From assembly GCA_031316235.1 (NCBI GenBank), contig JALDRA010000001.1:990001-1022000 (forward strand): 32,000 bases of DNA, written 5' to 3'. The notes below the pieces were generated by a model. It was not told the DNA's origin and did not search any database. It worked only from the letters and a program-made list of their open reading frames with translations. This document shows positions 1 through 30,696 of the stretch, in pieces. Source of the stretch: Candidatus Scalindua sp. (GTDB lineage: Bacteria > Planctomycetota > Brocadiia > Brocadiales > Scalinduaceae). A program made the position numbers and the translations under genes. Every line of letters starts with the position of its first letter. The stretch's first letter is position 1.

Positions 1-918
1 GAAAAAGCTTTTGTCGGCAAAGATATTATTCATGCTCAAGTATGGAAGAAAAATGATGACCGCATGGTCTATCACATGATTTACCGGGACGGCAGAGATG
101 GTGACAGCTTTGTCAAACGTTTTGCGGTCACCTCCGTCACCTACGACAAATCCTATGATCTTACCATGGGCACAAAGGGATCAAAGGTCATCTATTTCAG
201 TACTCATCCAAACAGTGAATCGGAAGTGGTCGCTGTATCACTGAGTGCGGGATGTTCCGCCCGCAAAACACTATTTGATTTCGATTTTTCCGATCTTGCC
301 GTCAAAGGACGTTCTTCAAAAGGCAACAGGCTTACAAAATACCCAATACGAAAAGTAGTACATAAAAAATCAGGAATTTCCACGTTAGGCGGGCTCGACA
401 TCTGGTACGACGAGACAGTCGGCCGACTTAACAGCGATAAGCGGGGTAGATATCTGGGGAAATTTGAAGGCGAAGACCGGATCCTGGTTGCGTATAAAGA
501 TGGCACGTTAGAGCTGACGGGCTTTGAACTCACCAACCGGTATGATACAGAAAAAACTCTCTTTATCGAGAAATATACTCCAGAAGCCACCATTACTGTT
601 GTACACTTTGATGGAGAATCAAAAAAATTTTATGTGAAACGTTTTACCGTACAGGCCAATTCAATTGGCACTTCCTTGCAATTTATTGGTTCCGAAAAGG
701 GCAATTCACCTCTCTTTGTCACCACTGCCACAGATCCAAAAGCCCGAATTCACTACCTGTTTGGCCGAAAAAAAGAGAAACGCAGCGAGGTTGTTCAGCT
801 GAACACTCTTGTCGACATTAAAGGCTATAAGGCTCGAGGCAACCTCATCAGCAATTACGAAGTATTTGACGTCATACCGGTTGAAAGTGAGAAACCGGAA
901 ACCATACTCATCTCATAA
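1..918 (+). CDS. DNA topoisomerase IV / gyrase subunit A family, C-terminal domain (5' end cut by window edge)
   Basis: The frame is open from nt 1 (EKAFVGKDIIHAQVWKKNDDR precedes the first Met at 64). Segments such as FVKRFAVTSVTYDKSYDLTMG and VKGRSSKGNRLTKYPIRKV resemble ParC/GyrA C-terminal domains as I remember them. The assignment is by recollection, not by search. The last codons and the TAA stop lie inside repeat copy A. Confidence 0.5.
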   Translation, partial: EKAFVGKDIIHAQVWKKNDDRMVYHMIYRDGRDGDSFVKRFAVTSVTYDKSYDLTMGTKGSKVIYFSTHPNSESEVVAVSLSAGCSARKTLFDFDFSDLAVKGRSSKGNRLTKYPIRKVVHKKSGISTLGGLDIWYDETVGRLNSDKRGRYLGKFEGEDRILVAYKDGTLELTGFELTNRYDTEKTLFIEKYTPEATITVVHFDGESKKFYVKRFTVQANSIGTSLQFIGSEKGNSPLFVTTATDPKARIHYLFGRKKEKRSEVVQLNTLVDIKGYKARGNLISNYEVFDVIPVESEKPETILIS

Positions 919-1043
919 TGGTTTTCGGATAAAATCCGAGAGAAAATTGAGCGAGTACAAGTCCTCGGCGCTTTTTGTCCGGGGATACCTTCACCAGGAT
1001 CTGGTTTCCGGTAAAACCGAAAACCAGATCGGTTTTAGTATAT
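904..1043 (+). repeat. Dispersed structured intergenic repeat, copy A (full length)
   Basis: Matches the family consensus TATACTCATCTCATACTGGATTTCGGATAAAATCCGrGAtAAATTGAGCGAGTAAAGTCCTCGGCGCTTTTTGTCCGGGGATACCTTCACCAGGATCTGGTTTCCGGTAAAACCGAAAACCAGATCGGTTTTAGTATAT. The 3' hairpin is at 998-1030 (GATCTGGTTT...AAACCAGATC). Confidence 0.85.
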
Positions 1044-1108
1044 CATTACTGGGCAGGAAGATCCTGAACAGCTTCAGCTGTTTGACAAAGAAGAGCAAAA
1101 ATAGACGT

Positions 1109-2026
1109 ATGAAACAACTTTTCGATAAATACGCATATATATTTACAGAATTTGCAGTTCTGGAAAGGCTGAGAAGGTCAGAGAATGTCTGCCTGCATCC
1201 GAGTCTTGAACACTCACTGCTCATTTACGATGAAATGGGGAGAAAAGAGATATCGTTGATTTATGATGAATACTTCGCATTACAGAGGAATACAAAAGTT
1301 CCCTTTATAATTTTCACCCCGACATGGCGGGCAAATAAGGAGAGAGTTGAATCCTTACCAATCCACAGAAATATAAATGCCGATGCCGTAACGTTTATGA
1401 AAGAGATAAGAGAGAAACATGCCTGTGAGTCCGAAAAAATCGTGATCGGTGGTTTGATCGGCTGCAAAAATGACTGTTATAAACCTGACGAAGCATTATC
1501 TATCAAGGAATCTGTCCTGTTTCACACATGGCAGATAGACAAACTCATACAGGGAGGAGTGGATTTTATTTTCGCTGCTTCACTTCCTGCCGTATCTGAG
1601 GCAGAGGGTATTGCGCAAATCATGTCGACCGTAACCATGCCATATATACTGAGTTTTGTAATTGACAGAAAAGGTCACCTGATGGATGGAACACCACTGC
1701 ATGAAGCTTTTAAGACCATTGACACATCCTGTATAAAGCCTCCCCTTGGGTTTATGATAAATTGTTCACACCCTGCTTTTTTCAAACCAGAAAGAGAGAC
1801 AAATTATGTCCTCTCAAGATTAATCGGTTACCAGGCAAACGCCTCGGACAGAGACCATGCAACCCTCGATGGTTCAGCAGACACTCAAGTAAGTGACATA
1901 TCAGATTGGGGTGAGAAGATGATAGCCCTTAACAGAGACTATAGCATAACCATACTTGGCGGCTGTTGCGGAACCAATGGAGAGCACCTCAGGTATCTGG
2001 CAGAAAACATTGACCGACTTCCGTAG
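1109..2026 (+). CDS. Homocysteine S-methyltransferase family protein
   Basis: The C-terminal ILGGCCGTNGEH motif (GGCCG zinc-ligand signature of the S-methyl_trans family) plus the upstream Cys in GLIGCKNDCY. The start is moved to ATG 1109 (MKQLFDKY...) because the 809-1108 part of the tracked ORF reads through repeat copy A. Confidence 0.8.
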   Translation: MKQLFDKYAYIFTEFAVLERLRRSENVCLHPSLEHSLLIYDEMGRKEISLIYDEYFALQRNTKVPFIIFTPTWRANKERVESLPIHRNINADAVTFMKEIREKHACESEKIVIGGLIGCKNDCYKPDEALSIKESVLFHTWQIDKLIQGGVDFIFAASLPAVSEAEGIAQIMSTVTMPYILSFVIDRKGHLMDGTPLHEAFKTIDTSCIKPPLGFMINCSHPAFFKPERETNYVLSRLIGYQANASDRDHATLDGSADTQVSDISDWGEKMIALNRDYSITILGGCCGTNGEHLRYLAENIDRLP

Positions 2027-2052
2027 GGGCAGATACATGGGTCTGCCCCTAC
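2023..2052. repeat. Palindromic GTAGGGGC hairpin (REP-like)
   Basis: GTAGGGGCAGA-tacatggg-TCTGCCCCTAC is a perfect 11-bp stem that includes the TAG stop codon of the upstream gene. No T-run follows, so it is not a classical intrinsic terminator. Confidence 0.7.
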
Positions 2053-2206
2053 AGAGGGCCATACAATGGTCTTCAGTATGTTGTACCGACATACCCGTCA
2101 AACAAATTTTTGCCAACAGGAATGACTATGCTATCAGTTCAATGTTTCCAACAAATATTTTGAAAGGAGACATAATTGGCAAACTTAAAAGTCTCAATCC
2201 CTTTTT

Positions 2207-2240
2207 GTAGGGGCAAACCTTTGGGTTTGCCGCCTTCCCT
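2207..2240. repeat. Degenerate second GTAGGGGC hairpin
   Basis: In GTAGGGGCAAACC-tttg-GGTTTGCCGCCTTCCC the 8-bp stem GGCAAACC/GGTTTGCC is intact. The outer GTAGGGG/CCCCTAC arms have decayed. Confidence 0.55.
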
Positions 2241-2253: not shown

Positions 2254-2403
2254 TTAGAATAATATATCTTTCTGAAGGACATCAGAGAGTATTTCATAAT
2301 TCAGCTTTTCATAATCGTGTGCGATCACATTACGGCATCCTGTCATTTTTATCATTTGTTCAGCCATATCTGATGCTATAATCTCCTCTTCATGAAGGAT
2401 ATA
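2254..2403 (-). pseudogene. HepT / DUF86 (HEPN) toxin remnant, C-terminal third only
   Basis: The minus-strand frame reads YILHEEEIIASDMAEQMIKMTGCRNVIAHDYEKLNYEILSDVLQKDILF*. It contains the HEPN R-x4-H-x-Y motif (RNVIAHDY) in the position typical of HepT C-termini. The frame is closed upstream by a TAG that belongs to the adjacent repeat fragment. No N-terminal half and no MntA partner are recognisable. Confidence 0.55.
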
Positions 2404-2428
2404 CTAAAACCGATTTGGTTTCCGGTAA
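2398..2428 (-). repeat. Dispersed repeat, 3'-terminal fragment only
   Basis: The reverse complement, CGGAAACCAAATCGGTTTTAGTATATCC, matches the last ~30 nt of the family consensus. It abuts the truncated HepT remnant. Confidence 0.6.
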
Positions 2429-2606
2429 TCTGAACGTAAAACGTGTTATTGCCGGAGAAAAAGCGGTTACCGATACTGTTGAAGCCCTTAAAAAAGCAGT
2501 TACTTCTGAAGGTACGGCATCAGAAGCCATACTTTTTTTCTCGTACTGTTTGAATAGTTCCCATCATCAACATACCATATTTTTAATCTGTCTCCCGGTA
2601 GTTGTA

Positions 2607-3190: not shown

Positions 3191-4720
3191 TTAAGTAAAT
3201 TGCTTTATGGCAATTTCTTTTAACTGTTTATAGTCTAATTTCCCTGTTGGAAGGAGAGGAATAGCATCAATGGATACATAATGGTCCGGTTGGGAGAGGT
3301 TCGGCATTCCAAGCTTATCGAGCCTTTTGTTGATTGTCAGTTTGTCCGGGTCTGTTTCCGTGACAAATGCAACAAGTTGTTCGCCCTTCTGGGGGTGGGG
3401 AATATTTATGATTGCACATCTTCTCTTTTCATCATTACTGTTTTCACCGAGGACCATGGATAATTTGTCTTCGACTGGAGAGAGAGGAATCATCTCTCCG
3501 CCAATTTTGGCAAACCGCTTCAGACGATCAGTAATAAAGAGAAATCCGTTTACAAGTCTGCCGATATCACCCGTTATATAAAAACCATCATGAAAGGCTT
3601 TCCCGGTTAATTCAGGCGATTTGTAGTATCCCTTCATAACGTTTGGTCCCTTAATGAGAATCAAGCCCTCTTCATTTTGAGGTAGTTCCCGGTAGGTTTC
3701 CGTGTCGACGATTTTGCATGCAATACCGGGTAATAGTTTTCCGACACTTCCGTGACAAAAATCTTTTGGTTTGTTTGCAGTTATACATGAGGTGCTTTCG
3801 GTCACTCCGTAACCTTCAAGGATAGTTATATCCAGTTTTTCGTAGAAACTCTTTCTCACCGTTTCGTGTAGTTTTTCTGCGCCGGCAAATGCCAGACGGA
3901 CACTGGAAATCTGGTCCCTCTTCCATTTTTTCATGAAACCACGGTACAGCGTACTGGTTCCTATGAGTATTGTCACCCGGTACTTCTGAACAATCTTGCC
4001 CAGTCTTTCATAATCAGTTGGATTCGGGTGAAAAACAACGCCAATTCCAATGAGTAACGGCATCCACAGGCAAACAGCAAAACCAAAGACATGAAAGAAT
4101 GGTAATGTACCAAGGATCTTTTCTCCTGGAACAGGCTCAAAGACCGTCTTATAATTTTGAATGCATGTGTAAATATTACGATTTGTCAGAAGCACTCCCT
4201 TCGGGTAAGATTCGGATCCCGATGTAAAGAGGATTACGGCTGTTTTGTCAGGGGTATCATGTTCTTCATATTTTTGAATGATCGAGCCGGCAGACGTAAG
4301 CTTACAGGAAAAATAGGTGAACATTTTTTCTATCTTTGATGTCCTGTCCTTAATGTCTTCAATAAAAACCATTCTTGGATCTTCAGGAATTTCTGCCCTT
4401 TGAATAAATATTCTGGAGGTAAAGATAGTATTTATTTCACAGGTCTCCAGGACCCAATCCTGCTCATTTTTCCCTGCAAGAAAATTGAGCCCAACGGGTA
4501 TCTTACCGGCAAAGGTTGTAGCAGCAAAGGCCAACGCACCTCCAACAGACGCCGGAAACAAGAGGGCAATATTCTCACCCTGAAATTTACGGATTTGTTT
4601 TGAGAGAAGAATGCAGGCAGTAAGCGTCTGCCCAAAGGTCAGCGACATCCCTGTTGAGTCTTCAAACACTACTTTATTGAAATTCTTTTTTGCTGTGGTG
4701 ATAAATTCTTTTAGTATCAT
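3191..4720 (-). CDS. AMP-dependent acyl-(ACP/CoA) synthetase (adenylate-forming enzyme, Aas/FadD-like)
   Basis: Adenylate-forming core motifs are present: ILFTSGSESYPKGV (A3), EGYGVTES (A5) and FYITGDIG (A7). Confidence 0.85.
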   Translation of the reverse strand: MILKEFITTAKKNFNKVVFEDSTGMSLTFGQTLTACILLSKQIRKFQGENIALLFPASVGGALAFAATTFAGKIPVGLNFLAGKNEQDWVLETCEINTIFTSRIFIQRAEIPEDPRMVFIEDIKDRTSKIEKMFTYFSCKLTSAGSIIQKYEEHDTPDKTAVILFTSGSESYPKGVLLTNRNIYTCIQNYKTVFEPVPGEKILGTLPFFHVFGFAVCLWMPLLIGIGVVFHPNPTDYERLGKIVQKYRVTILIGTSTLYRGFMKKWKRDQISSVRLAFAGAEKLHETVRKSFYEKLDITILEGYGVTESTSCITANKPKDFCHGSVGKLLPGIACKIVDTETYRELPQNEEGLILIKGPNVMKGYYKSPELTGKAFHDGFYITGDIGRLVNGFLFITDRLKRFAKIGGEMIPLSPVEDKLSMVLGENSNDEKRRCAIINIPHPQKGEQLVAFVTETDPDKLTINKRLDKLGMPNLSQPDHYVSIDAIPLLPTGKLDYKQLKEIAIKQFT

Positions 4721-4843
4721 ACGCTCTCCCCGGTTGAGTCAGCAGACGATTTGTAACCGTTAAATCAGCCGACTACAACAATCCCTGAATGTAGCTTCCC
4801 AATTTATACTCATCTCATTCATGGTGAGGTCCCGACCTTACCA

Positions 4844-5965
4844 TCAGTCTCTTCGTGGCAGAGGAGGAAGGCCGGACCTGGTTTTTTCTACTTCCTTACT
4901 GATCACCTTCTTTTTCACCTTTGCAGGAGATGTTTTTCTCTTTTGCTGATAGCCGGTTTTTTTCCCCTTTGCCCTATCAAGAAGTTCTCGTTTTTTTTCT
5001 CTATAGTCCCTGTCGTTTATTAAAGCGTCATGTCGCATTTCGTTCAATTCATTGAGTTTTTTTGCAACATCTATCTTCTCTTTCTTTCCCTCGAAATAAT
5101 CCTTATCCAGCAGGTAAGTATTATGTGTCTCGATTCCCAACCTGACAAGACACTCCTCTGAGACTATGTCTACAACCTTTTCAAGCTCTTTTTTAAGAAC
5201 GGTAACATCCCCATAAACCGTATCAACAAAATCTGATGTATTCATTTCTATCTTACTCTTTGCTTCAATAAAATCTTCCCATAAGACCGTTCCATCTGCA
5301 ACTTTCGTCATCTTCGCTCCTATCTTAAGGATAGCGTGTGGGTCTGAAAAAATTCCCGGATCTTTTATCCCGTAGGATAACACGTCTATTTCAAGTACGG
5401 TGTCTGTTCCCAATTCTGATCCTATCGTTCGATAGTCAGCCAATTCCTTAATCTCTTTTTCCAGTAACTTCCACACCACTTTGTTTTTTGTAATGCCCTC
5501 TTGCGGTACAACATCAAAATTGGAACACAGCTGAATCTTGGTATTAAGTTTTTTACAAAAAACCTGTCCAATGTTCACATCAAAGATCATTTCATTAAAA
5601 ATCATGCGATCTTCATGTTTCTCAGATAAAAAAGCCAGGCGCAGCATAAGCTGGGGGATAATCGCGGGGCCGGTCAGGAGTGTAGTAAGAAACTGTTCAT
5701 CAGCTCTTATATTTACGGTCATCTCCGGCAAATGAGCAGGATACAGGATAGCAAGATCATGTATATTTTTAGAATTTTCTTTTCTGTATGATTTCTGGTG
5801 AGTACCGGTTGTCTCGCATCCCGAAGCTATGAGTAAAGATACCGTCACCATGAAAAACAGCGATTCCAAGCGACCAAATTTTCTCTTCCCCGCATCCGGA
5901 CATCGGCCTGCAGAGCTATCTCTGTTTTCAAAAAAAAAATCATCTCCTGCTTCTCTGTTTCTCAT
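4844..5965 (-). CDS. Hypothetical lipoprotein with a C-terminal SHOCT-like motif and a basic tail
   Basis: Lipobox LLIASGCETT. The C-terminal KLNELNEMRHDALINDRDYREKKRELLD fits the SHOCT pattern (L..L...G.I...EY..KK..LL). The central domain is unrecognised. There is a 14-nt gap to the upstream PDZ gene. The exact start is uncertain. Confidence 0.5.
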   Translation of the reverse strand: MRNREAGDDFFFENRDSSAGRCPDAGKRKFGRLESLFFMVTVSLLIASGCETTGTHQKSYRKENSKNIHDLAILYPAHLPEMTVNIRADEQFLTTLLTGPAIIPQLMLRLAFLSEKHEDRMIFNEMIFDVNIGQVFCKKLNTKIQLCSNFDVVPQEGITKNKVVWKLLEKEIKELADYRTIGSELGTDTVLEIDVLSYGIKDPGIFSDPHAILKIGAKMTKVADGTVLWEDFIEAKSKIEMNTSDFVDTVYGDVTVLKKELEKVVDIVSEECLVRLGIETHNTYLLDKDYFEGKKEKIDVAKKLNELNEMRHDALINDRDYREKKRELLDRAKGKKTGYQQKRKTSPAKVKKKVISKEVEKTRSGLPPLPRRD

Positions 5966-5979
5966 CGTAAAATTACTCC

Positions 5980-6750
5980 CTACGAGGAAGTGGCTGCTTC
6001 AGGATTTATTCTCGCAAGTTCTTTCTCTATCTCCTGAAGATTAGACAGAATGAGTTTCAGATGCTCCTCTTTCTGAGTTTTCTTGAATAAACCTGTATAA
6101 AGCCTAAGAGAATTTTTATATTTTTTTATACTATCTTCCTTCATATTCCTATTCAGGTAGAGGTTACCAAGCTTATGACAAGCTTCCGCAATCAGGAGAA
6201 CCGTATCAATTGAGTCTGGTTGGTAATGAAGTCCATAGTAAAGATAGGTAATGGCTTCGTTGTAATGTCTCTCCTTTAAATTAAAAGTTGCTCCACTTTC
6301 AGAGGCAATTAAAGATCTCTTTCCCTTGCTGAACCAATAGTCATATGGTTTTCCCTTTGCGTCACGCGGAGCACCTGCGGGTTTTGCCACCTTCTCTTTC
6401 CAAGATTGATAGACAGGAATACTATAGACCTTGATCACGGCTTCATACTTAATTCCCTCCCTTAAAATGGTCAAATACGCCTCAACCTTTTCCTTTTTTA
6501 TCTTTCGGGAAATCTCCACGTAATCTTCAAGTTTGGTAATATTTTTCCCCTCTACTTCAAGTACTACATCACCCACCCTCAGACCTGCGTTGTAAACAGG
6601 ACTCTCATTCTGCACACCTACAACCATCAAGCCATTGCTTCTCTCAGACAGGATAAGACCTGAAAAGAGCGACTGCGCAAAGAGAGTTGAAGCACCGGTC
6701 CCGATGGATAGTATTACTATGATAATAACAAAGAGCAGCCGTTCTTTCAT
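5980..6750 (-). CDS. Secreted PDZ-domain protein with a helical (TPR-like) C-terminus
   Basis: N-terminal signal peptide (LLFVIIIVILSIGTGASTLFAQS) and a PDZ core (GLRVGDVVLEVEGKNITKLEDY). Confidence 0.65.
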   Translation of the reverse strand: MKERLLFVIIIVILSIGTGASTLFAQSLFSGLILSERSNGLMVVGVQNESPVYNAGLRVGDVVLEVEGKNITKLEDYVEISRKIKKEKVEAYLTILREGIKYEAVIKVYSIPVYQSWKEKVAKPAGAPRDAKGKPYDYWFSKGKRSLIASESGATFNLKERHYNEAITYLYYGLHYQPDSIDTVLLIAEACHKLGNLYLNRNMKEDSIKKYKNSLRLYTGLFKKTQKEEHLKLILSNLQEIEKELARINPEAATSS

Positions 6751-6827
6751 GATTTCTATGAGATCTCCTTAAGTTGTAAAGGACGCAAAATGAGAGAAGA
6801 ATAAAAAAGTCTTTTGATCATTACCTA

Positions 6828-19352: not shown

Positions 19353-19475
19353 CGATTTGGAATTTTTGTATATACCAAATCCCGGTGAAGGTATCCCCGG
19401 ACAAAAAGCGCCGAGGACTTTACCCGCTCAATTTATCCCGGATTTTATCCGAAATCCAGTATGAGATGAGTATAT
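19353..19475 (-). repeat. Dispersed structured intergenic repeat, copy D (reverse orientation)
   Basis: The reverse complement matches the consensus 5' and central modules. The 3' hairpin is retained as GATTTGG-(14-nt unrelated loop)-CCAAATC at 19354-19381. Confidence 0.8.
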
Positions 19476-21738: not shown

Positions 21739-21944
21739 TCCCGTGATCCAGTGATCTGCAGAATGATAGAAGATTGCCGATTCTTATGCAAAGTAAATTT
21801 GTAAGAAATCCCTTCCCAGTTCTTTTTTCAAGACAGCCCCCTTGATTACAATATAGATTACAGATCTGACACAAGAGCACCTGAAGGGAAATCCTTTGGT
21901 TGAGCCACTATTTTGGTAACTTTTCGAAAGTGACAAATTGTATA

Positions 21945-22325
21945 ATGTATACAGGCATCGATATTATTGAGGTTAAGAGGATTGAACGGGTCTTTATTTC
22001 CCATATGGGATTTCTCAGAAGAGTTTTCACGGAAGATGAGGTGAAATATTGCCAATCGAAGAAAAACTGTTTCCAGCATTATGCAGCACGTTTTGCATCA
22101 AAAGAGGCCGTTCTCAAGGCGTTTGGAACTGGTTTAAGAGAAAAAATGAAGTGGACCGACGTAGAAACTCTCAACGAAGAGTCTGGAAAGCCTTATATAA
22201 ATCTCTATGGCAGGGTAAAAGAGTTGGCGATTGAAAAAAATATATGTGAGATTTCAATCTCACTGTCACACTGCAAAGAATACGCAGTTGCACACGCATT
22301 ATTGGTTACACGCAACAAGGAATAA
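21945..22325 (+). CDS. acpS: Holo-[acyl-carrier-protein] synthase (4'-phosphopantetheinyl transferase, AcpS type)
   Basis: 126 aa with MYTGIDIIEVKRIERV and FASKEAVLKAFGTG, both typical AcpS motifs. An alternative TTG start at 21900 has a better SD-like AAGGGA, but it adds a non-conserved extension. Confidence 0.85.
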   Translation: MYTGIDIIEVKRIERVFISHMGFLRRVFTEDEVKYCQSKKNCFQHYAARFASKEAVLKAFGTGLREKMKWTDVETLNEESGKPYINLYGRVKELAIEKNICEISISLSHCKEYAVAHALLVTRNKE

Positions 22326-22503
22326 TCAACAGATTCAGCGTAATAAGCACATACGTTAAAAAAAGATTAAAACATGAACTTGATAATGGGTGAAAATAGT
22401 GTAAAATACCATCCGGTTATTATCCGTTATCTGTAACTTACACTATTTGTCAGGTATATTGTTTCCTTAAATAGGTTTGCCGGACTTTGCGATTGGTCAA
22501 AAA

Positions 22504-23973
22504 ATGAGAAAGTTAATCCTCATAAATCCGCACCCCGTTGGTAATGTCGGGGAGGAGAATGTTTCTGTATTAAATCAGATGCCCGTAAACCTTGGCTATC
22601 TGAAGAAACTGACACCGGAACATTGGGATGTTGATATTATCGACGAAACTCAAGAACTGGCAGTGGATGAAAAAGGAGAGAATCTGCGTTTTGAAAAACC
22701 TGATCTGGTCGGAATTACCTCTGTCAGCTATCAGGCTCACAGGGCATATCAGATAGCTGCAGCATGCAGAAAAAACGGAATTCCTGTTATCATGGGAGGT
22801 GTACATGCGACAAGTTACCCAGAAGAAGCTGCACAATATGTTGATTCTGTCATAATAAGAGAAGCTGTCACGATTTGGGCAGAGATAATTGCTGATTTTG
22901 AGAACAATGCCCTGAAAGAATCATATGATGGCGGCCTCACCCCTATGGAGATGTACAGAGATCTCTACTCAGATCGGGAATTTTTAAAGAATAAGTATAA
23001 GTATCGGTATTCGGGTATCATCACAACTGCCGGATGTCCCTTTAGTTGTGAATTTTGTTCAGTTCCTCAGTTTCAAGGGAAAAAATATCGAGAAAGACCA
23101 ATCGATGATGTATTAAATGAGCTGGAGAAAATTAAAGGAGAGTACAGGGGACTTATCCTGACCGATGAAAATTTCTATGGGCACAGTAAAAAATCAAACG
23201 AAAGAGTACGCAGTCTCTTTAAGAAGATGGTAGAGAGAGGTATATACCAGAATTGGTTTGGTTTTACTTCGTTGAACATTTATCAAGATGATGAGACATT
23301 AGAATATATGGTGAAGAGTGGTTGTGTCGGAGTTCTCATCGGTATTGAATCTATTAATGAAGAGGCGTTAAAGTCAATGAATAAGGGCGTCAATTTGCGT
23401 ATAACCGTGGAAAAATATAAAGAAGCGGTGAAAAATATCCGAAAGCATGGCCTTGCAGTATGGGGTACCATGGTTTTCGGTAATGATAGTGATACTACGG
23501 AAGGTTTTAAAGAAGTGGTTGATTTCATTGTAGATGCAAAGATCGACATTATGACATGCGGTATTTTATGCCCTTTTATTAATACCCCCCTGTACAATAG
23601 ACTTAACGGAGAGAATAGACTCTTCAGGACAAATTTCCCTGAAGATTGGATCTACTATACTTCACATCATCTTACCTATGTACTATCAAGACTCTCTCTT
23701 CAGGAGTTTATTGACGGTCTGGAGTATGTCTTTGAGAAAATATATTCAACTGATGTGATCAGGGAAAAATTCCGAAATGCGAAAACAGAGTTAAATAATC
23801 TTAACGCTGCCATGTTTGCCTTCAGGGTGAATCTGGACTGGCAATATGTCTTTCATCATTTATTGGAAAACTTAAAGCAACTGCAGGCTTCAGGGGCGTA
23901 CGAGGAGGCACGTGAACGCTACAAAAAGATGAAAAGCAGTAAAGATATCGGTTTAGCAAGTGTTAAGTCTTGA
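22504..23973 (+). CDS. B12-binding-domain radical SAM protein (class B rSAM)
   Basis: N-terminal cobalamin-binding-like Rossmann segment (LVGITSVSYQAHRAYQIAAACRKNGIPVIMGGVHATSYPEEA), followed by the radical SAM cluster motif TTAGCPFSCEFCSV (CxxxCxxC). The start is chosen at ATG 22504 (MRKLILINP). Confidence 0.85.
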   Translation: MRKLILINPHPVGNVGEENVSVLNQMPVNLGYLKKLTPEHWDVDIIDETQELAVDEKGENLRFEKPDLVGITSVSYQAHRAYQIAAACRKNGIPVIMGGVHATSYPEEAAQYVDSVIIREAVTIWAEIIADFENNALKESYDGGLTPMEMYRDLYSDREFLKNKYKYRYSGIITTAGCPFSCEFCSVPQFQGKKYRERPIDDVLNELEKIKGEYRGLILTDENFYGHSKKSNERVRSLFKKMVERGIYQNWFGFTSLNIYQDDETLEYMVKSGCVGVLIGIESINEEALKSMNKGVNLRITVEKYKEAVKNIRKHGLAVWGTMVFGNDSDTTEGFKEVVDFIVDAKIDIMTCGILCPFINTPLYNRLNGENRLFRTNFPEDWIYYTSHHLTYVLSRLSLQEFIDGLEYVFEKIYSTDVIREKFRNAKTELNNLNAAMFAFRVNLDWQYVFHHLLENLKQLQASGAYEEARERYKKMKSSKDIGLASVKS

Positions 23974-24026
23974 GCAGATACTATTTTTCTTCCTCTCCAC
24001 TATCCGGTTACAAGGTTTCTCAAAGA

Positions 24027-24146
24027 GTGGCTGAACGAAAACTACCCATCTACCGCGTTGCTGTAATAATTCCGTAATCCTCAAGTACATGGGTAGATTG
24101 CGGTTACGAAATCAGCACACCTTGTATCGGGGCAGTTTCCGTTCAA
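24027..24146 (+). promoter_or_regulatory. Conserved intergenic element, copy 1 (upstream of the KS gene)
   Basis: About 120 nt aligning by eye at roughly three quarters identity with 29614-29727. It contains an identical 18-mer ATAATTCCGTAATCCTCA (24066-24083). It ends 134 nt before the KS ATG. The function is unknown. Confidence 0.45.
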
Positions 24147-24280
24147 GTATGAAGTGGTGAGGAACAAATCCGCAGAATATTTTCTCGGAATCAGGCAGGG
24201 ACGAGCATATGGTAATTTTTTTACTACCTGAGTCTTGAGATGTCTCTCATATCGGTTATATTATTTCTGAAGGATGAATC

Positions 24281-25489
24281 ATGTCAAAAGTCGTTGTTAC
24301 GGGTCTGGGATTAGTATTAGCCAATGGTATTGGGGTGAAAAATGCATGGGAAGCGCTTATTCACGGCAAAGATGGCTCAGGGGATGTCACATCATTTGAC
24401 ACCTCACAGTATAAGATTCATCGTGCATGTGAAGTTAAGGATTTCAAGACAGATGTAATATTTGAAAATGAAACTCCTGCCAATACGATCCACAAATATA
24501 CCTATTCAGCAGCCAGGGAAGCATTAAGAGATAGCGGTTTACATGACATCGCCAACTATAATTGCGAAAGGTTTGGTATTGCAATTGGAACGCTTGCAGG
24601 TGAACTCCCCCCATTTGAATATCTGTTACGCAATTCCCCTGAAGACAAAGCTAATGGTTTTGACATGAATATCGCTCTAACATACCCACCATCCTCAATA
24701 ACTTCCCTGCTCTCTGAAGATTTTGGTTTTGAAGGCCCCACTATGGTTTCATTAAATGCATGTTCTTCCGGCAACCACGCTATCGCATGGGCACATGATC
24801 TCCTGTTAAACGGGAAGGTTGATGTGATGCTCGTCGGCGGCGGTGAGTTGATACCGCAAACAGAATTTACCCATTTTCACAATTTAAAGGCTCTCGCTCC
24901 TGAAAAATGTCAGCCTTTTGACAGAGAGAGAAAGGGACTCATTATTGGAGAAGGTGCAGGAATTATGGTAATAGAAACCCTCGATTTTGCAAAAAAAAGA
25001 GGTGCGGGTATTTATGCGGAACTAAGGAGCTCTGGAATGAGTTGTGACGGCCACCACATGACGGCTCCACATCCTGAAGGCGCCGGTGCGATCAGGGCGA
25101 TGCTGGAAGCACTATCAGGTGCCCGGCTCTCATATAAGGATATTGATTATATTAGCGCACATGGCACAGGAACTCCCTTGAATGATCGAATGGAAACGAT
25201 GGCAATTAAATCCGTCTTTAAGGAAAGAGCAAAGAAGATTCCCGCTAGTTCAATAAAATCCATGATCGGCCATACAATGGGTGCAGCGAGCGCAATAGAA
25301 TCGGTCGTAAGCTGTCTCTCGATCAGGAATAACATAATCCCCCCTACGATAAACTATGAAACACCTGATCCTGAATGTGATTTAGATTATGTGCCGAACG
25401 AAGGAAGAGAACTCAAGGTAAATTGCGTATTGAATAATTCCTTCGCATTCGGCGGAAACAATGTCACGAATATTTTCAGCAGATTTTAG
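24281..25489 (+). CDS. Beta-ketoacyl synthase (FabF/KS-alpha type, catalytically competent)
   Basis: Active-site Cys in SLNACSSGNHAI and both His in ISAHGTGTPLND and KSMIGHTMGAASA. Good SD (GAAGGA) upstream of the ATG. Confidence 0.9.
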   Translation: MSKVVVTGLGLVLANGIGVKNAWEALIHGKDGSGDVTSFDTSQYKIHRACEVKDFKTDVIFENETPANTIHKYTYSAAREALRDSGLHDIANYNCERFGIAIGTLAGELPPFEYLLRNSPEDKANGFDMNIALTYPPSSITSLLSEDFGFEGPTMVSLNACSSGNHAIAWAHDLLLNGKVDVMLVGGGELIPQTEFTHFHNLKALAPEKCQPFDRERKGLIIGEGAGIMVIETLDFAKKRGAGIYAELRSSGMSCDGHHMTAPHPEGAGAIRAMLEALSGARLSYKDIDYISAHGTGTPLNDRMETMAIKSVFKERAKKIPASSIKSMIGHTMGAASAIESVVSCLSIRNNIIPPTINYETPDPECDLDYVPNEGRELKVNCVLNNSFAFGGNNVTNIFSRF

Positions 25490-25532
25490 TACACATTCTC
25501 AAACGCATCATTTTTTATGCGTTAGAAAATAA

Positions 25533-26765
25533 ATGAATAAAAAAACTGTAATTACTGGTATTGGTATTGTATCTCCAATTGGTATCGGCCATCGAGAGTT
25601 CTGGAAGAATCTTGTTTCGGGTAATTCCGGCATCACCCCAATGGAATCACTGGATCTTTCAAAATATGAATGCAGAAATGGGGCAGAAGTAAAGACGTTA
25701 AATCCGGCAGATTTTCTCGGGCACAAAGGGCTGAGATACCTGAACAAGGGAACTAAATTTCTTGCTTCCAGTATAAAATTGGCATTAGATGATGCAGACT
25801 TGAACATAGATGATGAGATATCATACCAGACGGGAATTTTAATAGGAACATCCCTGGGTAATTTTTCTCAAACCACAGATTATTTTCATGATATTGTCCG
25901 GGAGAACCCTTCCGGACTCTCACCGATGCAGAGCTATGATGTTGCACTGAATTCTTCAATTAACTACGCCTCCGTCTTTTTCAAGATAAAAGGTTTTGCC
26001 AGGACGATCTCTTCCGGCTTTACTTCGGGAATTGACGCAATCGGCAATGCACATAAATTAATTCAGAATGGGAAAGCAGACATAATCATAGCTGGTGGTG
26101 TTGAACAGATATCGCTGGACCTCTACATGATCTTTTTAATGAGAAAGATGTTGTCTGGTTCAAATGGCGGGGGCAAAGAGATCAGCATGCCGTTTGATAA
26201 AAGACGAAACGGCTTCATCATGAGTGAAGGCAGTTATGTATTCGTAATGGAAAATCTTGATTTTGCCTTGAGTCGCGGCGCAAAGGTGTATGGCGAAGTA
26301 TCGGGGTTTGGGACAATTTTTGCCGGAAACAAAAATTATGATACGAGAAAAAGATTCGAAAAAGCCACGTCCGCAATGCGGGCATGTACGGATGATGCAA
26401 AAGTATCGCTTCAGGATATCGACCTTATTAATGCCAGCGGGAATTCAGACCAATCATCAGACTTTATTGAGGCACAGGCTATTTGCAAACTGTTTGAAAC
26501 AAGAGGTAATGAAATACCGGTATGCGCAGTTAAATCTATTGTGGGAGAGTGCTATGGTGCCTCCGGAGCAATGCAAACGGCAGCATCAGTACTCTCGATT
26601 CAAAACAGTCTCATACCCCCGACAATCAACTGTGAAGAAAAAGACCCCGAGTGCAGCATAAACATAATTCATCAGAAACAAGCAGGAAACATAAGCACGG
26701 CGCTTGTTAATTCGTTTGATTACACTGGAAACAACTCCTGTTTGATTTTAAAGAAATATGAGTAA
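25533..26765 (+). CDS. KS paralogue lacking the catalytic triad (chain-length-factor / KS-beta-like)
   Basis: It aligns colinearly with the upstream KS, but ACSSG -> GFTSG (Cys->Phe), SAHGTGT -> NASGNSD (His->Ser) and IGHTMGA -> VGECYGA (His->Glu). The start lies 43 nt after the KS stop. Confidence 0.8.
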   Translation: MNKKTVITGIGIVSPIGIGHREFWKNLVSGNSGITPMESLDLSKYECRNGAEVKTLNPADFLGHKGLRYLNKGTKFLASSIKLALDDADLNIDDEISYQTGILIGTSLGNFSQTTDYFHDIVRENPSGLSPMQSYDVALNSSINYASVFFKIKGFARTISSGFTSGIDAIGNAHKLIQNGKADIIIAGGVEQISLDLYMIFLMRKMLSGSNGGGKEISMPFDKRRNGFIMSEGSYVFVMENLDFALSRGAKVYGEVSGFGTIFAGNKNYDTRKRFEKATSAMRACTDDAKVSLQDIDLINASGNSDQSSDFIEAQAICKLFETRGNEIPVCAVKSIVGECYGASGAMQTAASVLSIQNSLIPPTINCEEKDPECSINIIHQKQAGNISTALVNSFDYTGNNSCLILKKYE

Positions 26766-28803
26766 GTTATTTGACCCCATTAAAATAGGCAGTATTGAAA
26801 TTAAAAATAGACTTGCCATGTCTGCAATGGATCTAGGATTCACCTCGGATGGTTCGGTAAACGAGCGGTTTATTGATTTTTATGTCGAAAGAGCCCGGGG
26901 AGGAGTAGGTTTAATCGTAATAGGAGGATGTTATCCTGAGATGAATGGGAAGGTATGGAAGAGTATCATCGGCCTTGACAAAGACAGCTTTATACCGGGA
27001 TTAAAAAAGTTTGCAGATACGATGCACGAGAATGACGTTAAAGTTGCCGCCCAGCTCCTTCATGGAGGAAGAAGCGCCTCCTCTTTCTTTACAAAGATGC
27101 GCCCTGTTTCAGCATCAAGCCTGGCCCACGTCAACATAAAACAGGCACCACACGCTCTCACCATACCAGAGATCAAGAAGGTGATCAGGGGCTTTGCCGA
27201 TGCAACTGTACGATTAAAGAAGGCGGGCTTTGATGCGGTTGAGATCCATGGAGGTATGGGCTACCTGATTAATCAATTTCTTACCAGGGCAACGAATGAG
27301 AGGAATGACAGATATGGAGGGAGCCTTCAAAAGAGGATAAATTTTGCCAGGGAAATTGTGATTGCAATAAAAGAAAAAACCGGTAAACGTTTTCCCATTA
27401 TATTCCGCTTATCCGGTGACGATTTCATTGATAACGGGCTCAAGATTGATGAGAGTATTGAGATTGCGAAGGAACTGGAAAAGGCGGGTGTAGATGCATT
27501 CAATATATCTCCCGGTTGGCATGAGAGCCGAATTCCCATAATGCTTATGTCCATCCCGAGAATGTCCTACATCTTCTTGTCTGAGAAGATGAAAAACCAG
27601 GTAAATGTACCCGTCATTGGATCGGTAAGAGTAAACGATCTGGCATTAGCTGAAGAGATTCTGGATAATGGACAGTCAGACTTGATATCGATAGGAAGGC
27701 CCCTCATCGCCGACCCGGAATTACCCAAAAAGTACAGGAAGAAACAGTTCAATGATATCAGAAGGTGTATCGCCTGCAACCAGGGCTGTTTTGATTCACT
27801 GCTAAACTTCAAATCGGTAAGCTGCCTCTATAATGTCAGGGCCGGAAGAGAGCGGGAATTAAAGATCAGGAAGGCCGCGAAAAAGAAAAAGGTAATGATA
27901 ATCGGAGGTGGTCCTGGTGGTCTCGAAGCTGCAAGGGTTGCCGCCCTGCGAGGACATGATGTTTATTTATATGAGAAGAACAGCGTTCTTGGCGGACAAC
28001 TGAGATATGCCTCTATGCCCCCTGGAAGGGAAGAGATAGAAAACGTCATTACGTTTCTCGAGACACAGATAAAAAAATTAAACGTAAAAATTCAATTACA
28101 TGAAAAGGCTGATATTACGGCGATTAAGAAGTTAAAACCAGATGCCGTAATTGCCGCTATTGGAGGCAGCCCCATCATACCTCCTATTCCGGGCATAAAA
28201 GAGAAGAATGTTGTTGTTGCTGAGGAAATATTTGATAAAAAGGTAAAAGTCGGAAAAGAGGTGGTCATTATCGGCGGAGGGACAATTGGATGTGAGGTTG
28301 CCTTGCATATTGCAAAAATGGGAGCAATGAATCCTGAAGTAGCGTGTTATCTTCTGAGAAACAGGGTCATTAATGGTCAGGAGGCTGCAGAATATACCTC
28401 GCGGGGAAGAAGGAATATTACGATCCTGGAAATGAAGAACAAGATCGGTGGCTCTTTTGGCATCTCAACCCGATGGGTCATCATAAAGCAGGTGAAGGAT
28501 GCGGGGATTGAGTGTGTGACCGGTTTGAATATTAGAGAGATTATGACGAAAAAAAATGGAACAAGATCGACAGGAGTAGATTCACAAGATGCAAAAATCT
28601 GCGTAACCTTTGAAAAGGAGAAAAAAATACACTCGATTTTTGCCGATACCGTCGTCATAGCAGCTGGATACAAACCTAATCAAGACCTTATCAGTAAACT
28701 GGATGGAAAAATAGAAGAATTTTATAAAATAGGAGATTGCGTAAAGGTTCGGACTGCCCTTGAAGCCATTCATGAGGGATTTGAAGTCAGTTTAAAATTA
28801 TGA
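26758..28803 (+). CDS. FadH / 2-enoate reductase family flavoprotein (OYE-like TIM barrel + 4Fe-4S + FAD/NAD(P)H domains)
   Basis: N-terminal FDPIKIGSIEIKNRLAMSAM and HGGMGYLINQFL (old-yellow-enzyme fold), CIACNQGC (Fe-S), and the dinucleotide folds IIGGGPGGLEAA and VVIIGGGTIGCEVA. The start overlaps the CLF-like stop by 8 nt. Confidence 0.85.
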   Translation: MSKLFDPIKIGSIEIKNRLAMSAMDLGFTSDGSVNERFIDFYVERARGGVGLIVIGGCYPEMNGKVWKSIIGLDKDSFIPGLKKFADTMHENDVKVAAQLLHGGRSASSFFTKMRPVSASSLAHVNIKQAPHALTIPEIKKVIRGFADATVRLKKAGFDAVEIHGGMGYLINQFLTRATNERNDRYGGSLQKRINFAREIVIAIKEKTGKRFPIIFRLSGDDFIDNGLKIDESIEIAKELEKAGVDAFNISPGWHESRIPIMLMSIPRMSYIFLSEKMKNQVNVPVIGSVRVNDLALAEEILDNGQSDLISIGRPLIADPELPKKYRKKQFNDIRRCIACNQGCFDSLLNFKSVSCLYNVRAGRERELKIRKAAKKKKVMIIGGGPGGLEAARVAALRGHDVYLYEKNSVLGGQLRYASMPPGREEIENVITFLETQIKKLNVKIQLHEKADITAIKKLKPDAVIAAIGGSPIIPPIPGIKEKNVVVAEEIFDKKVKVGKEVVIIGGGTIGCEVALHIAKMGAMNPEVACYLLRNRVINGQEAAEYTSRGRRNITILEMKNKIGGSFGISTRWVIIKQVKDAGIECVTGLNIREIMTKKNGTRSTGVDSQDAKICVTFEKEKKIHSIFADTVVIAAGYKPNQDLISKLDGKIEEFYKIGDCVKVRTALEAIHEGFEVSLKL

Positions 28804-29600
28804 AAGACATACGAATGAACAGGGGTGACAATTCCGGATATCAGCACCTTGAGTATGAAGAGGTAGAGCTTAAGAACAACAGGTATGCCGGAGTCATCAA
28901 GATAAGGAAACCTCCCAGGAACTCTATTGGTTCATGGCTGTTAGATGCACTCTATGACAGGATCGATGCATATGAAAGTGATGATAAGATAGCAGCCATT
29001 ATTATCACAAGCAGCATACGGGGAGTCTTTTGTGATGGTGCGGACAGAAACGAACTGTTCGGCCCATGGATCTCGGGTTTGGTGGCCGAAAAAAACTACG
29101 ATAGATTTATGAGGGCACATGAGATGTATCTGGAGATAGAGAATTGCCAAAAACCTCTTATTGCCGCCCTCAACGGTGTTACCATAGGGGCAGGTCTTGA
29201 GCTCGCCCTTTTATGCGATTTCCGTATTGCTTCTGAAACCGCGTTTTTTAGTCTACCTGAGGCAAAACCTGAATTGAGCATAATACCGGGACTTGGAGGA
29301 ACTATCAGGCTGCCAAAGGTGATAGGTACCGCCCGGGCCAAGGAGATGTTGTATTCAGGTAAGATGATTCGTGCGAAAACAGCGCTTCAATGGGGTTTGG
29401 TGAATAAACTCGCACCTGTGAAGGGTGTCCTTAAAGAGGCGCTCGATTACGCCGAGGTACTGGCACAAAACAGCAGCAAGGCAATAAAGACAATGAAAAA
29501 GTGTATTAACTTTGCAATGGACCACGATACAAGGGAGGGGATAAAATATGAAGTTGGCCTCTTTGCAGAAATTATGCGGCAGAAGCTTGTAAAGACCTAG
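28800..29600 (+). CDS. Enoyl-CoA hydratase/isomerase (crotonase) family protein
   Basis: LIAALNGVTIGAGLELALLCDFRIA and FSLPEAKPELSIIPGLGGTIRLPK. Both canonical catalytic Glu positions appear to be present. ATGA overlap with the upstream reductase stop codon. Confidence 0.85.
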   Translation: MKDIRMNRGDNSGYQHLEYEEVELKNNRYAGVIKIRKPPRNSIGSWLLDALYDRIDAYESDDKIAAIIITSSIRGVFCDGADRNELFGPWISGLVAEKNYDRFMRAHEMYLEIENCQKPLIAALNGVTIGAGLELALLCDFRIASETAFFSLPEAKPELSIIPGLGGTIRLPKVIGTARAKEMLYSGKMIRAKTALQWGLVNKLAPVKGVLKEALDYAEVLAQNSSKAIKTMKKCINFAMDHDTREGIKYEVGLFAEIMRQKLVKT

Positions 29601-29613
29601 CCACGCAGGGTAC

Positions 29614-29727
29614 GTGGTTGAACGAGAACTATCCATCTTACTGCGTTGACGTCATAATTCCGTAATCCTCAGGTATATTCCGGTCACGAATTTATTATGC
29701 AGGTTGTACCCGGGAAGTTCCCGTTCA
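29614..29727 (+). promoter_or_regulatory. Conserved intergenic element, copy 2 (upstream of fabG)
   Basis: Same orientation and order of blocks as 24027-24146, with the identical 18-mer at 29654-29671. It ends 98 nt before the fabG ATG. Confidence 0.45.
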
Positions 29728-29825
29728 GCCACATTGTTTTGTTCAAACACCGGGTTTTCGTTCATGCACTCGTTAAGTTTTTTTGGTAATTTTTTATCAC
29801 TATATTTTCTCCTGGAGGCAAAGAG

Positions 29826-30563
29826 ATGAAAGATAAAGCAGCAATAGTAACAGGCGGCACTAGAGGTATCGGTCGGGCTATAGTCCTGGAGTTAGCAAGA
29901 AATGGGTGTAATGTTGCCTTTAATTATGCAAAGAGCGGGGATCTGGCAAAAGCCCTTGTAACAGAAGTCGAGTCACTCGGTGTCAAGGCCCTGGCAAAAC
30001 AGGCAGACGTGGCAGATTTTGAAGCAGCAAAGAATATGGTGACTGAAGTTAAGGAAGAATTCGGGCAGATTGATTTTTTGATCAACAATGCCGGTGTGAC
30101 CAGGGACAAGCTCCTGGCATTAATGAAAGAGAGCGACTGGGATGATGTGATCAACACCAACCTGAAAAGTGTCTACAACTTTTCCAAGGCAGTAATTATG
30201 ACCATGGTCAAACAGAAGAGCGGGAGCATACTCAACATTACGTCAGTAAGTGGAATTGCCGGAGTGGCGGGACAGACTAACTACTCCGCATCAAAGGCTG
30301 GCGTCATCGGCTTTACTAAGGCCCTGGCCAAGGAAGTTGGAAAGGCAAAAATAAATGTAAATGCTATTGCGTGTGGATTCATTGAGACCGATATGACAGC
30401 TTCACTCCCGGAAGAGTATAAGAATAAGATGATAGATATGACGTCTCTCAAACGATTTGGGAACCCTGAAGAGATAGCCAGGATTGCTTCATTCATGCTC
30501 TCAGAAGACGCAAAATATATTACCGGACATGTTCTCACCGTTGATGGTGGATTGGCATTATAA
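29826..30563 (+). CDS. fabG: 3-oxoacyl-[ACP] reductase (SDR)
   Basis: TGGTRGIGRAI cofactor motif, NNAG, catalytic Ser (ITSVSG) and YSASKAG. 245 aa. Strong SD (GGAGG). Confidence 0.9.
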   Translation: MKDKAAIVTGGTRGIGRAIVLELARNGCNVAFNYAKSGDLAKALVTEVESLGVKALAKQADVADFEAAKNMVTEVKEEFGQIDFLINNAGVTRDKLLALMKESDWDDVINTNLKSVYNFSKAVIMTMVKQKSGSILNITSVSGIAGVAGQTNYSASKAGVIGFTKALAKEVGKAKINVNAIACGFIETDMTASLPEEYKNKMIDMTSLKRFGNPEEIARIASFMLSEDAKYITGHVLTVDGGLAL

Positions 30564-30600
30564 ATCTGTTCCTTTAACCCGCAGTAATGAAACAGTCTGG

Positions 30601-30696
30601 CTGGTTGCTGGTATCACCGGACAAAAAAACGCCGAGGACTTTACCTGCTCCGTTTTTTGCCGGATTTTACCCGAAATCCAGTATGAGATGAGTATA
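30601..30696 (-). repeat. Dispersed structured intergenic repeat, copy E (reverse orientation, 5' and central modules only)
   Basis: The reverse complement reads TATACTCATCTCATACTGGATTTCGGGTAAAATCCGGCAAAAAACGGAGCAGGTAAAGTCCTCGGCGTTTTTTTGTCCGGTGATACC... The canonical 3' hairpin is absent. Confidence 0.75.

Follow-up and report, generated by a model that had tools for sequence, protein, structure and literature searches.

What is the structured repeat that recurs along a 32-kb stretch of DNA (the window) from Candidatus Scalindua, and how did it come to be there? The original prediction listed six pieces of it and proposed either a MITE-like selfish element or a family of small structured RNAs. 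All six pieces were recovered, with coordinates that differ by 1–3 nt from those first given, and a solo 5' end had been overlooked. In the window, the repeat is thus represented by five copies, a 3' fragment and this 14-nt 5' fragment, and it measures 112–140 nt between its sharp ends, TATACTCATCTCATA ... ATCGGTTTTAGTATA (Table 1). The 5' 15-mer occurs six times in the window with at most one mismatch and the 3' 15-mer four times, while neither was found in 100 dinucleotide-preserving shuffles. As argued below, the repeats are most probably copies of a MITE, a non-autonomous transposon of the IS630/Tc1-mariner type, which has become widespread in the genomes of Candidatus Scalindua.

Table 1. 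Pieces of the repeat family in the 32-kb window.
Piece	Position	Strand	Description
Copy A	903-1042	+	140 nt, full length, with middle module; profile E 6.6e-44
Fragment F	2400-2468	-	3' part only; profile E 2e-6
Solo 5' end	4805-4818	+	14 nt, TATACTCATCTCAT; remnant of a truncated copy
Copy B	9558-9669	+	112 nt, short form, both ends intact
Copy C	17827-17959	+	133 nt, with middle module
Copy D	19353-19474	-	5' end and middle module intact; model positions 1-128
Copy E	30599-30696	-	5' end and middle module; model positions 1-97

We then compared the individual pieces. Copy A represents the subtype 'ATAATGGTTTTCGG', which is frequent in other Scalindua genomes, and the flanking 5' T of its TA is mutated (CATACT). 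The predicted overlap of copy A with the 3' end of the upstream gene was confirmed: the gene that ends at 918 takes its final four codons and its stop codon from the 15 nt shared with the copy, indicating that these repeats can change gene ends. Fragment F has the exact 3' end ATCGGTTTTAGTATA at 2400-2414; it resembles the family clearly over 2400-2428 and more weakly from there to 2468, to which the profile extends the match. Copy B lacks the 27-nt middle module and sits, in antisense orientation, between two genes belonging to a MoxR/DUF58/BatA/VWA cluster. Copy C has lost 7 nt from its 3' hairpin and ends in AATATA. In copy D, other sequence takes the place of the apex of the 3' hairpin and the 3' terminal repeat is missing, changes that probably leave this copy immobile. 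Copy E breaks off after about 97 nt, and neither D nor E retains an intact 3' end. The modular build, with the middle module missing in B, and the inversion of TATACT and AGTATA at the termini are real, as had been proposed. The ORF map likewise agrees with the intergenic placement of the copies and with their orientation relative to neighbouring genes (two with, three against), and the ORFs overlapping the copies are spurious TTG-start frames.

The family is not confined to the window, which shares about 85% identity with a MAG of Candidatus Scalindua. A wider census found the repeat to be abundant in at least four Scalindua MAGs and in marine metagenomes: at least 118 eight-kb blocks of four MAGs contain the 5' motif, and nhmmer gave 185 hits in 946 kb of Scalindua DNA and 41 further hits in 36 metagenome loci. 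Pairwise identity among copies has a median of 0.89 and reaches 0.99. Most copies are intergenic (125 of 139, about 90%, against a crude coding fraction of 73%), their orientation classes relative to genes (38/30/24/18) show no bias, and many are truncated at arbitrary points. The species of the window itself is sampled by the 32-kb window, and the only other contig identical to it is a 5-kb Logan contig. The window subtype 'CTGGATTTCGG' had 0 matches in an exact-match scan of the metagenome collection, and copy A had none in blastn searches of PLSDB plasmids and INPHARED phages. A literature search for Scalindua or anammox MITEs returned no description of the family, which seems to be undescribed so far.

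The boundaries of the element were defined in four Scalindua MAGs, which supplied 171 5' ends and 134 3' ends. The copies are alike precisely as far as TATACT... on one side and ...AGTATA on the other, beyond which their flanks are unrelated to one another. Both ends carry imperfect terminal inverted repeats of 26 nt with the form TATACT-N10-TGGTTTTCGG; the 3' repeat is identical to the 5' repeat at 16 of 26 positions, only the outer 6 and inner 10 nt being shared. Filled and empty insertion sites, some of them from different MAGs, could be set side by side in eight comparisons, in all of which the insertion equals the element plus 2 bp. In seven of the eight, TA is single at the empty site and double at the filled one; since these seven empty sites read TA, it is the TA that is duplicated. 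Several comparisons involve a second repeat family, which reads cccaggTAcaagg when uninterrupted and cccagg[TATACTC...AGTATA]caagg when occupied; they cover the copies in L004 and L008, which are possibly one ancestral insertion, and those in L091 and L048. The MITE inserts repeatedly at this one TA of the second family. A single TA at the empty site was also found in the pairs L078/L106, L042/L055+L049, L032/L010 and L090/L026, the last being an orthologous RBC_AMX3/SCAELEC01 pair, while the L111/L100 pair has a 2-bp CG at the empty site. The pairs L090/L026 and L111/L100 demonstrate presence/absence polymorphism at orthologous sites of different MAGs. For copy E, a syntenic comparison with SCAELEC01 met intergenic DNA too diverged for alignment. 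The site logo shows a weak A-TA-T in AT-rich context with a variable 5' flank, and no duplication longer than the 2-bp TA was found in it.

These results bear out the MITE-like selfish element: the repeat is shorter than 500 bp and non-coding, has inverted repeats and a target duplication, and exists in many dispersed, polymorphic copies. TA duplication is a hallmark of the IS630/Tc1-mariner group, although the IS427/ISL2 groups of IS5 are also able to make 2-bp duplications. The IS630 family has been grouped with Tc1/mariner (PMC7386202).

A metagenome scan with a degenerate terminal repeat identified an insertion sequence (IS) of 1124 bp with TA at both ends, TA-TACCCATTCCAAAATGGTTTTAGG ... 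GTGACCAGTA-TA; in L176, the other IS end reads TATACTCATCACAAAATG (reverse complement). Its 343-aa ORF, which lies at 1538-2566 in L148, matches NF033545, IS630 family transposase, with 221.7 bits (cut-off 100), as well as Pfam DDE_3, HTH_33 and HTH_29. The IS occurs in marine metagenome contigs, some of them Scalindua-like: genes about 70-73% identical to Scalindua loci are found on one contig that carries it (L156) and on another that terminates within the IS end, after its first 55 nt (L123). Two contigs of the MAG SCAELEC01 (SHMT01000004 and SHMT01000091) start within the 3' end of an IS of this kind, and each shows the end ...CCTAAAACCATTTCGTAATGAGTATA; 126 nt of the Scalindua copy are available. 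This end agrees with the MITE 5' repeat at 21 of 26 positions and with the repeat of a sister MITE family at 24 of 26. The TA target, and terminal repeats akin to the ends of an IS630-family IS from the same lineage, place the MITE in the IS630/Tc1-mariner type. The contig starts inside the IS, together with the Logan contig that ends in copy B, illustrate that these repeats break short-read assemblies.

The original prediction saw no transposase, which is true of the window, and an IS with matching ends and a transposase exists elsewhere in Scalindua-type DNA. Neither the window nor the DNA between paired MITE ends in the 946 kb of Scalindua sequence contains a transposase of the MITE, and when 717 ORFs were compared all against all to find multi-copy transposases, only IS110 and a group II intron RT-like protein emerged. 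Paired MITE ends were also inspected for an autonomous parent. Those 1838 and 1862 nt apart are an IS110-family IS inserted into the MITE, while the pairs with spacings of 2161, 4029 and 1230 nt surround genes without relation to the MITE or, between two sister MITEs, an integrase pseudogene. Descent of the MITE from the 1124-bp IS by internal deletion is not demonstrable beyond the repeats, and a by-eye comparison of the IS ends revealed no subterminal IS-like sequence in the MITE beyond the 26-nt repeats. Many MITEs share only terminal repeats with their mobiliser.

We propose the following mechanism. The element proper extends from TACTCATCTC... to ...GGTTTTAGTA and is non-coding; it integrates into TA dinucleotides of AT-rich, mostly intergenic DNA, with duplication of the TA. 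An IS630-family DDE transposase from the 1124-bp IS, supplied in trans, would bind the repeats and move the MITE by cut and paste. The similarity of the ends suggests that this transposase mobilises the MITE family, and the conserved inner block TGGTTTTNGG is its putative binding site. Alternatively, another TA-duplicating transposase, from a different IS630 lineage or of the IS5-family IS427/ISL2 type, might move the MITE. The agreement of the IS end with the 5' end of the MITE at only 21 of 26 positions, the divergence of the central 10 nt of the MITE 3' repeat, the much better fit of the sister family to the IS, and the 126 nt from which the Scalindua IS copy is known would all be compatible with this. 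We consider it unlikely, however, as the outer TATAC and the inner TGGTTTT-GG are common to the IS, the sister family and both MITE ends, and no further candidate was found near any end.

The architecture of the repeat is consistent with a mobile element whose hairpins are probably by-products of this build. The so-called hairpin 1 (P1) is an inverted internal copy of the left terminal repeat, so that the MITE contains a third copy of this repeat, and the long 3' hairpin includes the right terminal repeat. Copies range in size from 57 to 226 nt as modular variants. The 27-nt middle module is present 0, 1 or 2 times, and is in tandem in five loci (L018, L125, L127, L167 and L200). Length variation probably arose by recombination between the two similar hairpins, by presence, absence or duplication of the middle module, and by nesting of GC-rich hairpin modules in hairpin loops. 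It was also observed that the hairpin loops of the MITE accept such nested GC-rich modules.

Could the copies instead be genes for small structured RNAs, or cis-regulatory leaders, terminators or sRNAs, conserved for an RNA function? Copies A and B fold strongly (z ~ -5.5), but both strands of the element fold equally well, and the orientation of the copies is indifferent to that of the genes. In copies C and F, the 3' hairpin with the GGTTTT behind it receives a terminator-like score, and TATACT at the terminus is usable as a -10-like hexamer, yet promoter and terminator counts are not above those of shuffles. A compensatory change in the P1 stem of one lineage (L004/L008) and a subfamily switch from CCGGT/ACCG to TTAGA/ATCTA that preserves the 3' hairpin speak for the RNA view; overall, however, the covariation term is only -0.39 kcal/mol and both sides changed in 2 of 30 pairs, the copies being too similar to one another to be informative in this respect. 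Rfam, consulted on whether this is a known RNA family, gave 0 matches in the window at the gathering score and, at the E-value threshold, only tRNA and chance hairpin hits in four multi-variant loci. From the duplicated targets and the empty sites it is evident that transposition brought the copies to their places, and the arbitrary truncations also speak against a conserved RNA. We therefore regard the RNA half of the original prediction as highly improbable. Its other suggestion, an origin from IS200/IS605, was prompted by the subterminal hairpins at both ends. On this view the copies would be miniature elements (PATEs) or REP/BIME sequences moved single-stranded by a Y1 (HUH) transposase or RAYT. 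IS200/IS605 elements make no target duplication, have no terminal inverted repeats and insert with just one of their sides next to a fixed motif of four or five nucleotides. The 2-bp TA duplication, the terminal inverted repeats, the variable 5' flank and the match of the ends to an IS630-family IS contradict this origin, which we regard as very improbable.

The IS630/Tc1-mariner-type MITE of Scalindua can be compared with several known systems. Correia elements (CREE) of Neisseria are MITEs of about 100-155 bp with ~26-bp inverted repeats and TA duplication, present in hundreds of mostly intergenic copies, with long hairpins and with a long form that has an internal segment missing from the short one. 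They resemble the Scalindua MITE in size, repeat length, TA, copy number, long and short forms and hairpins. The host phyla differ (the Scalindua MITE is found in anammox Planctomycetota) and we know of no sequence relationship between the two. Correia elements are not known to have a cognate transposase, whereas for the Scalindua MITE there is an IS630-family IS whose ends are related. BOX elements of Streptococcus pneumoniae are similarly built from a 5' module, 0, 1 or 2 middle modules and a 3' module with a stable fold. BOX elements have, as far as we know, neither a defined TA duplication nor an IS partner; for the Scalindua MITE, in contrast, TA duplication and IS630-like ends indicate the mobility mechanism. 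The PATEs of IS200/IS605 and REP/RAYT sequences are likewise small, hairpin-rich, intergenic and multi-copy, but lack the terminal inverted repeats and target duplication that the Scalindua MITE has. Stowaway MITEs of plants are non-coding, with TA duplication, short inverted repeats and high copy number (PMC1925063). Stowaway and the IS630-derived MITEs of cyanobacteria and other bacteria share with the Scalindua MITE the TA duplication, short IS630/Tc1-mariner-like inverted repeats, the lack of coding sequence and a high copy number. The Scalindua MITE differs from them as a separate family with its own ends (TACTCATCTCATAATGGTTTTCGG), a third internal repeat copy and an unusually modular size ladder.

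The family is an ordinary kind of selfish DNA and opens no new mechanism. It is nevertheless a clear case, in bacteria, of an IS630/TA-type MITE for which a partner IS can plausibly be named, and its sizes are unusually modular. Together with its sister family and the second, 130-nt family, it fills much of the intergenic space of Scalindua genomes, and these repeats could be used to tell apart strains of an uncultured lineage of biogeochemical importance. The family would go beyond a standard MITE if the GC-rich modules were mobile and loop-specific, or if some copies served as terminators or mRNA-stabilising hairpins. It is doubtful that the MITE family is more than passive junk and forms the centre of a layered system of repeats within repeats in the genomes of anammox bacteria. 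The IS110-family (RNA-guided) IS mentioned above used the same insertion point in two different MITE copies. This IS appears to target the loop of the 27-nt middle module specifically, and possible IS110 footprints were seen in other MITE copies.

We matched five copies of the repeat family (A–E) and a 3′ fragment (F) in the window to a search profile built from 44 copies outside it, with E-values from 6.6e-44 to 2e-6, and independent repeat detection in the window recovered the same family. When the six places were re-read, they showed the modules described in the original prediction, and the middle module was indeed missing from copy B. In the window, the 5′ 15-mer TATACTCATCTCATA has six matches with at most one mismatch and the 3′ 15-mer ATCGGTTTTAGTATA has four, while neither occurred in 100 dinucleotide-preserving shuffles. 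The sixth of the 5′ matches, a solo remnant, had been overlooked. Copies B–E have in common a CTGGATTTCGG variant that was not observed in the other genomes, whereas copy A has the common variant, a pattern that fits a lineage-specific burst. At window 901-918, copy A forms the final four codons plus stop codon (ATA CTC ATC TCA TAA) of a gene that enters at the window start and ends at 918, and its insertion has remodelled the C-terminus of the encoded protein.

Members of the repeat family in the window
Feature	Position	Strand	Basis and remarks
Copy A	904-1042	+	profile match (start otherwise placed at 903)
Copy B	9558-9669	+	profile match; without 27-nt middle module
Copy C	17827-17959	+	profile match
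Copy D	19474-19353	-	profile match; 3′ end lost
Copy E	30696-30599	-	profile match; 3′ end lost
Fragment F (3′ part)	2468-2400	-	profile match
Solo 14-nt 5′ remnant	4805-4818	+	sixth 5′ 15-mer match

The genes of the window are ordinary chromosomal ones, among them a MoxR-DUF58-BatA-VWA cluster and genes for ketoacyl synthases, a radical SAM enzyme and a MATE pump. Window 21935-31802 is collinear, at ~85% identity, with SHMT01000008 of the MAG ‘Candidatus Scalindua sp. SCAELEC01’, indicating that the window belongs to another species of Scalindua, a marine anammox planctomycete. At the genus level, the possibility that the motif is missing elsewhere in the genome does not hold: a scan for ACTCATCTCATANTGGNTTTCGG in one genome per species found it in at least 118 eight-kb blocks, all from four Scalindua/Scalinduaceae MAGs among the matches listed, and nhmmer with copy A gave 185 hits in 946 kb of those blocks. 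For the window's own species the evidence is indirect and comes from a contig that breaks inside copy B (L119, below). Among 31 ‘pure’ 139-nt copies, pairwise identity has a median of 0.89 and a maximum of 0.99, the latter between different loci in one genome, which suggests that the activity of the family is not ancient.

Similarity between copies begins exactly at TATACTCATCTC and ends exactly at GGTTTTAGTATA (171 5′ ends and 134 3′ ends), and the flanks are unrelated. The 5′ end reads TATACT-CATCTCATAA-TGGTTTTCGG and the reverse complement of the 3′ end TATACT-AAAACCGATT-TGGTTTTCGG; the two thus have the outer 6 nt and inner 10 nt in common and constitute imperfect 26-nt inverted repeats. 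When the ends are paired, element lengths form a ladder of 57, 85-91, 111-113 (the copy B type, n=42), 130-143 (the copy A/C type), ~165, ~194 and ~222 nt. The 57-nt form consists of the two repeats only, joined via similar hairpins TGGTTTYCGG-TAAAA-CCGAAAACCA. The 112-nt form has in addition an internal segment with the terminal sequence TGAGCGAGTA, which in metagenome variants perfectly repeats the left repeat in inverted orientation (TACTCATCTCAAAATGGTTTTTGG...CCGAAAACCATTTTGAGATGAGTA in L144, one of the loci outside the window), so the originally described hairpin 1 and its enclosing stem represent pairing of the left repeat with a third, internal one. In the 139-nt form the middle module AAGTCCTCGGCGCCTTTTGTCCGGGGA is also present; it is tandemly doubled in L018, L125, L127, L167 and L200. 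In longer forms, the loops of both TGGTTT hairpins hold nested GC-rich hairpins that are largely restricted to this family, and many copies are truncated at arbitrary points. In L063 (rc 3893), L092 (rc 5284) and L105 (rc 3329-7357), the 3′-hairpin loop holds another small inverted-repeat element with ends AGTGTCCGGTTAGGTTTTTGC and GCAAAAACCTAACCGGAC and CGGGAA-type hairpins. The nesting of several repeat families in one another appears common across these genomes.

Several copies sit within repeats of a second family, unrelated to the first, whose uninterrupted members served as empty sites. The empty site reads cccaggTAcaagg and the occupied one cccagg[TATACTC...TTTTAGTATA]caagg (L004, L008, L091 and L048). 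L004 and L008 have a rare TACACT variant in common and may descend from one insertion. The same result was obtained from L078/L106, L042/L055 with L049, and L032/L010, as well as from the orthologous pair L090 (MAG RBC_AMX3) and L026 (SCAELEC01), which read aaacgaga[TA...TA]tcagag and aaacgagaTAtcagag, respectively. In L111 versus L100, the empty site has CG, not TA, which is still compatible with a 2-bp footprint. These comparisons show that TA is duplicated on insertion and that the element proper extends from TACTCATC to TTTTAGTA. In the flanks there is a weak preference for A-TA-T in AT-rich DNA and no duplication longer than 2 bp. The second family itself has 133 nhmmer hits in the Scalindua loci, where the element hits one same TA (cccaggTAcaagg) repeatedly; its two copies in the window (24008-24154 and 29614-29772, ~130-150 nt) are missing at the syntenic positions of SCAELEC01. 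SCAELEC01 (L048 388-2929) has an extra 2.5 kb relative to window 22318-22499, containing a 385-aa ORF with a P-loop (GPRGTGKS) as well as copies of the element and of the second family.

At the Scalindua loci, none of the paired ends encloses a transposase. A sister family of ~183 nt has better repeats (TATACCCATCACAAATTGGTTTTCGG and TATACCCATTGCAAAATGGTTTTAGG), and a decayed 3′ half of a member is found at window 18130-18229 (+). A degenerate consensus derived from the sister repeats, scanned against the metagenome collection, gave 104 loci: ~36 contain copies of the first family, and in ~30 the match is to the end of a 1124-bp IS, full or nearly full in 7 of the latter. This IS is bounded by TA-TACCCATTCCAAAATGGTTTTAGG and GTGACCAGTA-TA (the second end in L176, reverse complemented, is TATACTCATCACAAAATG), and carries a 343-aa ORF that scores 221.7 bits (cut-off 100) against NCBIfam NF033545 ‘IS630 family transposase’ and matches Pfam DDE_3, HTH_33 and HTH_29. 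Two SCAELEC01 contigs start inside the 3′ end of the transposase gene and exit via CCTAAAACCATTTCGTAATGAGTATA to unique DNA; the IS end there, TATACTCATTACGAAATGGTTTTAGG, matches the 5′ repeat of our element at 21/26 positions and one sister-family repeat at 24/26. Genes in L156 (with a partial IS) and L123 (which stops 55 nt into the IS end) are 70-73% identical to Scalindua loci. The 3′ repeat of the element is divergent, and comparison by eye showed no subterminal similarity between the element and the IS. TA duplication is the hallmark of the IS630/Tc1-mariner group; from this and the related ends we infer, on good grounds if short of proof, that the lineage of the 1124-bp IS would mobilise the family. 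IS630 is grouped with Tc1-mariner (PMC7386202), and IS630-family ISs were reported in other anammox genomes (PMC7814187).

The original prediction also considered a family of small structured RNAs. Folding is indeed stronger than in shuffles (z ~ -5.8 for A and ~ -5.4 for B), and the 3′ hairpin plus GGTTTT of copies C and F was flagged as terminator-like, but opposite strands fold equally strongly, covariation is negligible and there is no Rfam match. On a crude gene map, in which 73% is coding, 125 of the 139 full copies fall between genes, and their orientations to neighbouring genes are 38 (+,+), 30 (-,-), 24 divergent and 18 convergent. This placement reflects purifying selection against gene disruption without orientation preference, and is expected for a selfish element, not for a cis-acting RNA. 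Since transposition is also demonstrable from the filled and empty sites, it is unlikely that the copies form a family of RNA genes or riboswitch-like elements. Individual copies may act as weak terminators and others may provide a TATACT resembling a -10 hexamer; the numbers of both classes are no higher than in shuffles. As for the resemblance to IS200/IS605 seen in the hairpins near both ends, such an ancestry, like a REP/RAYT one, is contradicted by the inverted repeats and TA duplication.

What stands from that prediction is a MITE-like selfish element: the family has the characters of a MITE, and of an IS630-type MITE, save derivation by internal deletion, of which none was seen; mobilisation by the transposase is predicted. 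In function it is of one kind with the Correia elements of Neisseria and with MITEs derived from IS630/Tc1-mariner, for example Stowaway (PMC1925063), and the A-B(n)-C modularity is reminiscent of BOX elements in pneumococci. The family belongs to a known kind of element and seems itself undescribed: full-text searches turned up no account of MITEs from Scalindua or from anammox bacteria.

In RBC_AMX3, two copies of a 1.7-kb IS110-family IS (NF033542, 96 bits, split ORF; L054 4440-6277 and L086 3148-5009), 99.5% identical, occupy the same middle-module loop point, GGCGCC^TTTTGTCC, in two different MITE copies. At that point L019 and L003 read GGCGCCTGGTTTATCC and GGCGCCTGGTCC, resembling the first bases of the IS110. 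The middle module may be the programmed target of an RNA-guided IS110 recombinase.

Within ORF 13859-17599 (-), a 24-nt tandem array of ~60 registers runs from window 14406 to ~16200, with a G+C of 0.58 versus ~0.41 elsewhere. No Pfam family matches the 1246-aa product, presumably a repetitive surface protein or one of low complexity. The sole other contig found to encode a protein identical to one of the window (L119, Logan contig SRR28338161_55533) ends, by gene coordinates, inside copy B (~window 9642) and inside this array (~window 14612); both repeats break short-read assemblies.
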